DNA of 36,841 nucleotides, taken from IMG/VR virus record IMGVR_UViG_2703718801_000025. One strand, 5' to 3'. A program made the translations under genes and the position numbers. Source of the stretch: a virus. Its lineage: Duplodnaviria > Heunggongvirae > Uroviricota > Caudoviricetes. Every line of letters begins with the position of its first letter. The first letter of the stretch is position 1. The notes beneath the pieces were generated by a model. It saw only the letters and a program-made list of their open reading frames with translations. It did no database searches and was not told the origin of the DNA. Shown here piece after piece: positions 7,480 through 7,821 of this stretch.

Positions 7480-7650
7480 GCCGTTATAGGTCTGCTGAAG
7501 TTCCTGTACTCGTGTTTTGGCCTGACTGAATAACTTTGCCTGCGCGGCGGTTGGCCTGTTAGTGGCAGCAAATTGTGTGGCGAGTTTTGCCGCCTCTTCG
7601 CGGGCTGCGTTCAGGTTATTGGCTGTTATGGCTAGTTGCGAGCGCGTCTA

Positions 7651-7821
7651 GCGAAATTCATCAATTCTGCCAGCCTGCTTATTCAGTTCTTTGAGGCTGT
7701 TTCGGGTATTCTGAATTGCGCCAGCCAGCTCTTTCGAACTGGCCTGTGCAGCACGGAATGGGCGGGTGAGTTTGTCAACCGTATTAAGAATGACCTGCAG
7801 GCGCAGGTTATTATCACTCAT
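7651..7821 (-). pseudogene. T: N-terminal 57 codons of the tape measure gene, separated from the main ORF by an in-frame amber codon
   Basis: ATG at 7821-7819 opens MSDNNLRLQVILNTVDKLTRPF...RIDEFR in the same frame as the 4744..7479 ORF; the E' extension stops 8 nt into this ATG, as in P2. Confidence 0.55.

Follow-up and report, generated by a model that had tools for sequence, protein, structure and literature searches.

A premature amber codon in the tape measure gene of a P2/186-like prophage of Escherichia coli

The tape measure gene (T) of a P2/186-like prophage is interrupted by an in-frame amber codon at codon 58. We hold with high confidence that this codon is a genuine, spontaneous change of AAG (Lys58) to TAG, and that it reflects a recent, vertically inherited pseudogenization of T in a defective prophage. 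The stretch of DNA that we analyzed (36,841 nucleotides, hereafter the window) is, over its whole length, a P2/186-like prophage (Peduoviridae); among the phages of the collection, Cartapus (genus Elveevirus) is its nearest relative. The features of T that concern us are the following:

4744 to 7821, minus strand: tape measure gene T, homologue of P2 gpT and 186 gpG, a pseudogene through one internal stop (translation, PF10145, PGAP)
7648 to 7650, minus strand: in-frame amber TAG at codon 58, formerly AAG (Lys) and changed by an A>T transversion at 7650 (direct reading, alignment)
7651 to 7821, minus strand: N-terminal remnant of T (57 codons), the only part of the gene within reach of translation from the native start (alignment with the P2 and 186 T N-termini)
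7476 to 7479, minus strand: first in-frame restart candidate after the TAG, a TTG at 7479-7477 (codon 115) with a second TTG directly after it (list of open reading frames, codon scan)

An initial annotation of the window had described the T frame as open from the ATG at 7821 to 4744 and broken only by a TAG at 7648-7650, after codon 57. This description matches the strand as read directly, the list of open reading frames, and the translation. On the minus strand, the frame runs for 1025 codons from the ATG at 7821-7819 to the TGA at 4746-4744, and translation of the 1026 codons that include the terminal stop yields stops at codons 58 and 1026 alone. The list of open reading frames accordingly contains a 57-aa frame (7648 to 7821) and a 911-aa frame (4744 to 7479), which share one reading frame, as 7821 and 7479 are both multiples of three. 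Beyond the TAG, 967 codons are open. By our own arithmetic, the probability of this occurring by chance is (61/64)^967, or about 1e-20, and the frame beyond the TAG is therefore not a chance frame. Apart from the TAG, T contains no further stop or frameshift. When codon 58 was restored to Lys, residues 246-457 of the product matched the Pfam family PF10145 (PhageMin_Tail) with an E value of 2e-18 and a score of 67 bits (cut-off, 33). A working member of the gpT family has an uninterrupted frame, and this frame has a TAG at codon 58; this copy of T is thus a pseudogene of the P2 gpT/186 gpG family and not a working member of it. The lesion is already on record in the RefSeq annotation as a routine pseudogene, with PGAP labeling the gene in NZ_CP027548.1 "phage tail tape measure protein, pseudo, internal stop".

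The genes around T are arranged as sheath, tube, E, E', T, U, and D, the order of the P2/186 late tail operon. The neighbors of T to which we refer below are these:

7948 to 8250, minus strand: tail assembly chaperone gene E (Pfam PF10109, Phage_TAC_7)
7814 to 7933, minus strand: E' open reading frame, the frameshift extension of E, with a TGA at 7816-7814 that overlaps the T start (PF06528, Phage_P2_GpE, E = 2e-20; PGAP "GpE family phage tail protein")
4262 to 4747, minus strand: gene U, tail protein, with an ATG that overlaps the T stop (ATGA) (list of open reading frames, PGAP)
3165 to 4265, minus strand: gene D (late control D/baseplate hub), the last gene of the FETUD operon (list of open reading frames, PGAP)

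Gene E carries the -1 slippery heptamer T_TTT_TTG at 7993-7987, which is in the E frame by a manual count from the ATG at 8250. The start of T and the stop of E' overlap by 8 nt, ATGAGTGA, and the same 8-nt E'/T overlap is present in phage 186 and in Salmonella phage RE-2010. The proposal that the T start is fixed by the overlapping E' stop is borne out by this overlap, which we read directly. The gene order, the slippery heptamer in E, and the PF10145 match are features that this T shares with P2 gpT and 186 gpG, and its N-terminus is 46-47% identical to those of the P2 and 186 T proteins. In contrast to P2 T, this copy is longer (1025 aa compared with about 815 aa, as calculated from the 2448-nt P2 coding sequence) and has the stop at codon 58. 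It belongs to an Elveevirus-like allele group, with 98.8% identity to phage Cartapus over a 601-nt query.

The ancestral codon, which the initial annotation had left to alignment with homologues, is AAG, encoding Lys58. AAG is the codon in the two nearest intact alleles examined, those of E. coli FDAARGOS_497 and phage Cartapus, both of which encode an uninterrupted T of 1025 aa from the same ATG; the lesion is thus an A>T transversion at 7650. In an alignment of the first 120 residues, F56-R57-K58 is invariant in Cartapus, RE-2010, P2, and 186, and these four phages share the N-terminal motif MS(D)NN(L/V)(R/K)L. We also compared the first 172 residues of T with 50,697 phage records using tblastn. 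Matches were found in 304 records, which extend from phages of E. coli to those of Burkholderia and Ralstonia, and in 302 of them the match is a single unbroken piece that covers at least 80% of the query and spans codon 58. Two observations had been named that would speak against a broken gene: homologous T proteins that start downstream of 7648, and a separate, conserved 57-aa gene. Neither was found. The 302 records are collinear with T, the N-terminus is common to the four phages, and the relatives examined have no separately annotated 57-aa gene at this place. The tblastn search and the alignment with P2, 186, RE-2010, and Cartapus together rule out both a 57-aa gene of its own and a downstream T start.

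To survey the distribution of the TAG, we compared a 61-nt query centered on it with complete E. coli genomes and obtained matches in 205. Six of these match the query exactly: 2014C-3061, 13E0780, 13E0725, OkiPb01680, OkiPb01683, and OkiPb01700. The remaining 199 differ from it by at least one base and, among the matches listed, by exactly one. The six carriers are independently assembled complete genomes, and they match the window at 100% over the surrounding 601 nt as well as over the 61 nt. According to published genome announcements, 13E0725 is O182:H25 and 13E0780 is O156:H25, both are ST300 and were sequenced by PacBio, and 13E0725 was isolated from cattle in Germany in 1998. OkiPb01680, OkiPb01683, and OkiPb01700 are O156:H25 isolates from Okinawa cattle, and 2014C-3061 comes from the stool of a human patient in the USA. 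Serotype O156:H25 or O182:H25 is therefore documented for five of the six carriers. The TAG thus marks one clonal bovine STEC lineage (O156:H25/O182:H25, ST300/ST688), with samples from three continents and many years.

The same six genomes carry a second nonsense codon, in the immunity repressor gene of the prophage:

33412 to 34008, plus strand: 186-type CI immunity repressor gene, a second pseudogene (alignment, PGAP "internal stop")

At codon 80 (33649-33651), CAA (Gln80) has become the ochre codon TAA. The T amber and the CI ochre occur together in six genomes whose origins are Germany, the USA, and Japan, which is the pattern given by vertical inheritance. We propose a single origin of the TAG, in the ancestor of this bovine STEC lineage, followed by vertical transmission.

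The window itself is none of these six sequences. It differs from 2014C-3061 by four SNPs and a 96-bp deletion, and, judged by the T-to-CI coordinate offsets, all six carriers are longer than the window by approximately 96-98 bp. The 96-bp deletion is in frame and lies between 11-bp direct repeats, ATTGCTTCAGC, in a DUF2732 early gene (about 31835-31972, minus strand); its junction is at 31863-31873, and it shortens the protein from 77 to 45 aa. Since this deletion is present in the window and in 0 of the 6 complete genomes that bear the TAG, the window must come from a further sister strain or assembly, and it represents a seventh, sister sequence with the same TAG.

These data also bear on whether the TAG could be a sequencing or assembly error in a gene that is in reality intact. 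In favor of an error, the codon differs from that of its relatives by a single base. However, six complete genomes, produced in three laboratories, share this base with the window, itself a distinct sequence. PacBio was the platform for the two German genomes, and the change, a transversion, lies outside any homopolymer. We consider an error extremely unlikely, and an artefact is excluded by the presence of this base in six independent complete genomes and the window.

To estimate the age of the lesion, we counted codon changes specific to the window at positions where FDAARGOS_497 and Cartapus agree. T contains 35 synonymous, 10 missense, and 1 nonsense change of this kind. As a rough estimate, this corresponds to a dN/dS near 0.1, which is the signature of purifying selection until recently. 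Many of the window-specific changes are clustered in the 3' third of the gene. The 3' 1357 nt of T are 100% identical between the window and all six genomes of the lineage, and the nearest other allele is 96.9% identical. The 3' part is thus not the product of erosion after inactivation but belongs to a functional allele that is divergent and found in this lineage alone. A long period of decay under relaxed selection is disfavored by the 35:10 ratio of synonymous to missense changes and by the absence of further stops. The nonsense mutation is thus recent when set against the history of the allele and older than the spread of the lineage.

We then considered ways in which the stop might be bypassed. 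A suppressor tRNA of the host or of a prophage could read both stops, UAG in T and UAA in CI, in which case the prophage would be functional, like a sus mutant in a permissive host. Such suppression would fit the presence of two nonsense codons in two essential genes of a prophage that otherwise looks intact, and it would fit the tolerance of the lineage for a nominally CI-null prophage. It would also be invisible in PGAP annotation, which carries no suppressor tRNAs. Because the CI stop is an ochre codon, an amber suppressor would not read it, whereas one for ochre would act on both codons. In E. coli, suppression of ochre codons is weak and costly.

We searched 5,426 complete E. coli genomes for suppressor alleles, using anticodon-swapped versions of tRNA-Lys, tRNA-Tyr (CUA and UUA), tRNA-Gln1, tRNA-Gln2, and tRNA-Ser(CGA). 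Each query was validated by a universal match with a single mismatch at the anticodon. The search covered six classical amber and ochre alleles. The supG/L (Lys-UUA), supF (Tyr-CUA), supB (Gln1-UUA), and supC (Tyr-UUA) alleles were each found in 0 of the 5,426 genomes. The supD allele (Ser-CUA) was found in one, DSM 498, which is not a carrier, and supE (Gln2-CUA; glnV CUA) was found in 155, with C600, DH5alpha, and J53 among the eight listed. The supE and supD matches shown are standard laboratory or collection strains (C600, DH5alpha, and J53; DSM 498) and served as positive controls. PGAP leaves the supE and supD tRNA genes unannotated, with no feature under the match, and annotation alone therefore cannot rule suppressors out. 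In OkiPb01680, the one carrier of the six that was inspected with ARAGORN, supE is absent, as glnX and glnV both have the wild-type CUG anticodon. The window contains no tRNA gene.

Suppression of both stops is highly unlikely in light of these results: the Lys-UUA, Gln-UUA, Tyr-UUA, and Tyr-CUA alleles are absent from all genomes searched, supD is confined to one unrelated strain, both glutamine tRNA genes of OkiPb01680 are CUG, and the window brings no tRNA. We give a very slight chance to a variant of this explanation, in which both stops are partly decoded by a suppressor other than the six alleles, such as a mutated leuX, trpT, or gltT, or a tRNA on another prophage. If this were true, the prophage would be conditionally alive, the viability of a nominally CI-null lysogen would be accounted for, and the system would be a rare natural case of a suppressor-dependent prophage in a wild pathogen. 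In the initial annotation, the amber codon was stated to be premature and to prevent, unless suppressed, the synthesis of full-length T from a P2-type gene. The comparative data and the suppressor search support this statement, with the check for host amber suppressors negative for the six classical alleles in the carriers examined.

The stop could instead be a programmed recoding or regulatory site, or the boundary between a 57-aa protein and a shorter T. An in-frame stop inside a structural gene recalls the readthrough of Qbeta A1 and the TAG-recoded crAss-like and Lak phages, which carry suppressor tRNAs. This resemblance is one of appearance only. Unlike the stops in those systems, the stop in T is unconserved, occurs once in the gene, and is accompanied by neither a phage suppressor tRNA nor a recoding signal. 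Homologues do not conserve the stop: 6 of 205 genomes, all of one lineage, have TAG at codon 58, and the residue is Lys in the four phages. No Rfam family overlaps the TAG site, and the predicted fold of 141 nt around and downstream of the TAG is unexceptional (z = -0.9; 35 of 200 shuffled sequences fold at least as well). The existence of the 57-codon open reading frame, and nothing else, speaks for recoding or a two-gene arrangement. Against these stand the 199 of 205 genomes and the four phage homologues, inspected codon by codon, that lack the stop, the 302 of 304 phage records that are unbroken across codon 58, and the lack of a downstream stimulatory structure or an Rfam element. The comparative data refute this explanation, and we regard its probability as virtually nil.

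Translation might also restart past the TAG, for example at the TTG at codon 115 or at the ATG at codon 171, producing an N-terminally shortened T and shorter tails. The 967 open codons beyond the stop include in-frame TTG, ATG, and GTG codons that could serve as starts. Deletions in a tape measure can give shorter yet assembled tails, as is known for gpH of phage lambda, and this precedent from other phages favors a restart. However, the first candidate, the TTG at codon 115, lies 171 nt past the TAG, and the 20 nt upstream of it (TTCAGCAGACCTATAACGGC) contain no Shine-Dalgarno-like sequence; use of this TTG thus seems unlikely. The N-terminus that would be missing is conserved from P2 to the Burkholderia and Ralstonia phages, which argues that it is needed, and no relative examined is annotated with such a start. 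We consider a restart that yields a shortened T very improbable.

Suppression, programmed readthrough, and reinitiation are all unsupported, and a genuine nonsense mutation in T remains our explanation. Translation from the native T start, which is coupled to E/E', would end after 57 residues, and full-length tape measure would be absent beyond trace readthrough. The tape measure is essential for tail assembly in P2-like phages. Without T, we would expect no tail assembly and hence no infectious particles. Basal readthrough of UAG in E. coli is not zero, and few copies of T are needed per tail; the prophage may therefore produce a very low residual yield of particles.

The effects of the TAG may extend to the genes downstream of T. 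The start codon of U overlaps the stop of T, and a 2.9-kb stretch of mRNA ahead of it would go untranslated; U and D are thus likely to be affected by translational uncoupling and Rho-dependent polarity. Translation of U is probably coupled to that of T, as their overlap suggests, and would hence be reduced by the premature stop; the untranslated 2.9 kb would lower expression of both coupled downstream genes, U and D.

The T allele resembles the amber (sus) mutants isolated in the laboratory in tail genes of P2, 186, and lambda, in that a single sense codon of an essential late gene has become UAG. In a non-suppressing host, sus tail-gene mutants are expected to yield heads without tails. In contrast to laboratory sus mutants, this allele is natural and fixed in a wild lineage for which the search of six suppressor alleles was negative in the carriers examined, and it is therefore dead rather than conditional. 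A prophage with an inactivating lesion in an essential gene is defective, and this one has both the T amber and the CI ochre, each in a gene that PGAP annotates as a pseudogene.

The CI lesion raises a separate question. UMNF18 (NZ_AGTD01000001.1, 918000-958000) carries a related prophage at the same ybjL/rcdA site, with CI intact, and the CAA>TAA change is the sole difference between the window and the UMNF18 allele over the 597-nt CI gene. Residues 1-79 of CI retain only the helix-turn-helix domain (PF07022). The C-terminal domain of 186 CI builds the dimer and the 14-mer wheel that are needed for cooperative repression (PMC3675496). With its CI truncated, a 186-type prophage would be expected to be derepressed and harmful. 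Simple decay does not account for the stable carriage of this prophage, which implies that something further blocks it. A lesion in T would leave the early and lysis genes able to kill the cell, and so it does not explain the viability of a CI-truncated lysogen. This viability is a point of some biological interest; there is little else here beyond housekeeping.

Over 5 kb around the lysis-lysogeny switch, the window differs from UMNF18 at nine positions only. SNPs relative to UMNF18 in and around the switch include those at 33394, 33080, 32874, and 31980. At the first of these, the window has C and UMNF18 has T; this position falls within the 95 bp that separate the start of apl (33316, minus strand) from the start of CI (33412), and the change could affect pR or pL. 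When the CI/apl switch region was scanned for consensus promoters, none was detected. If the early lytic operon (apl-cII-fil-A) is silent in spite of the CI truncation, the cause might be residual activity of CI residues 1-79, a promoter mutation such as that at 33394, or a defective replication gene A.

A single deletion has removed everything from the capsid gene to gene U from the UMNF18 prophage, which was therefore unsuitable as an intact comparator over the whole prophage. It represents an independent, more advanced decay of the same prophage family. Together with the window, this eroded relative at the same site indicates that decay of this family at the locus is recurrent. The two independent nonsense lesions of the window fit a prophage in early decay, and we would place this prophage, as defective, at an early stage of that process, with which the CI nonsense mutation is consistent. 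The defective prophages of O157 Sakai and the cryptic prophages of K-12 are similar in that they look complete, are inactivated by point mutations, are inherited vertically, and retain cargo. Compared with these examples, decay is very early here, with two nonsense codons and, in the window, the 96-bp deletion.

Three cargo genes were identified from PGAP annotation of a sister genome:

25082 to 26584, minus strand: retron Ec67-family reverse transcriptase/endonuclease
34029 to 35705, plus strand: DUF4041 protein, between CI and the integrase gene
10394 to 11515, plus strand: acyltransferase, between the tail fiber and sheath genes

Such cargo might explain why the host retains the prophage even though it is defective. 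The lesions matter for estimates of the phage-mediated mobility of this cargo (the retron Ec67-type reverse transcriptase, the DUF4041 protein, and the acyltransferase) and for prophage-prediction tools, which would score this prophage "intact". The T amber and the CI ochre are also convenient lineage markers for the ST300/ST688 bovine STEC clone. The SNP at 25118, among the four that separate the window from 2014C-3061, falls in the reverse transcriptase gene.

In E. coli, the prophage is located between ybjL/rybB and rcdA. The window includes the host small RNA RybB at 2700-2778 on the plus strand (Rfam RF00110, 105 bits), approximately 80 bp from an ogr/Delta-like gene (2856-3074) at the end of the prophage. 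This proximity places the attachment site at or adjoining rybB.
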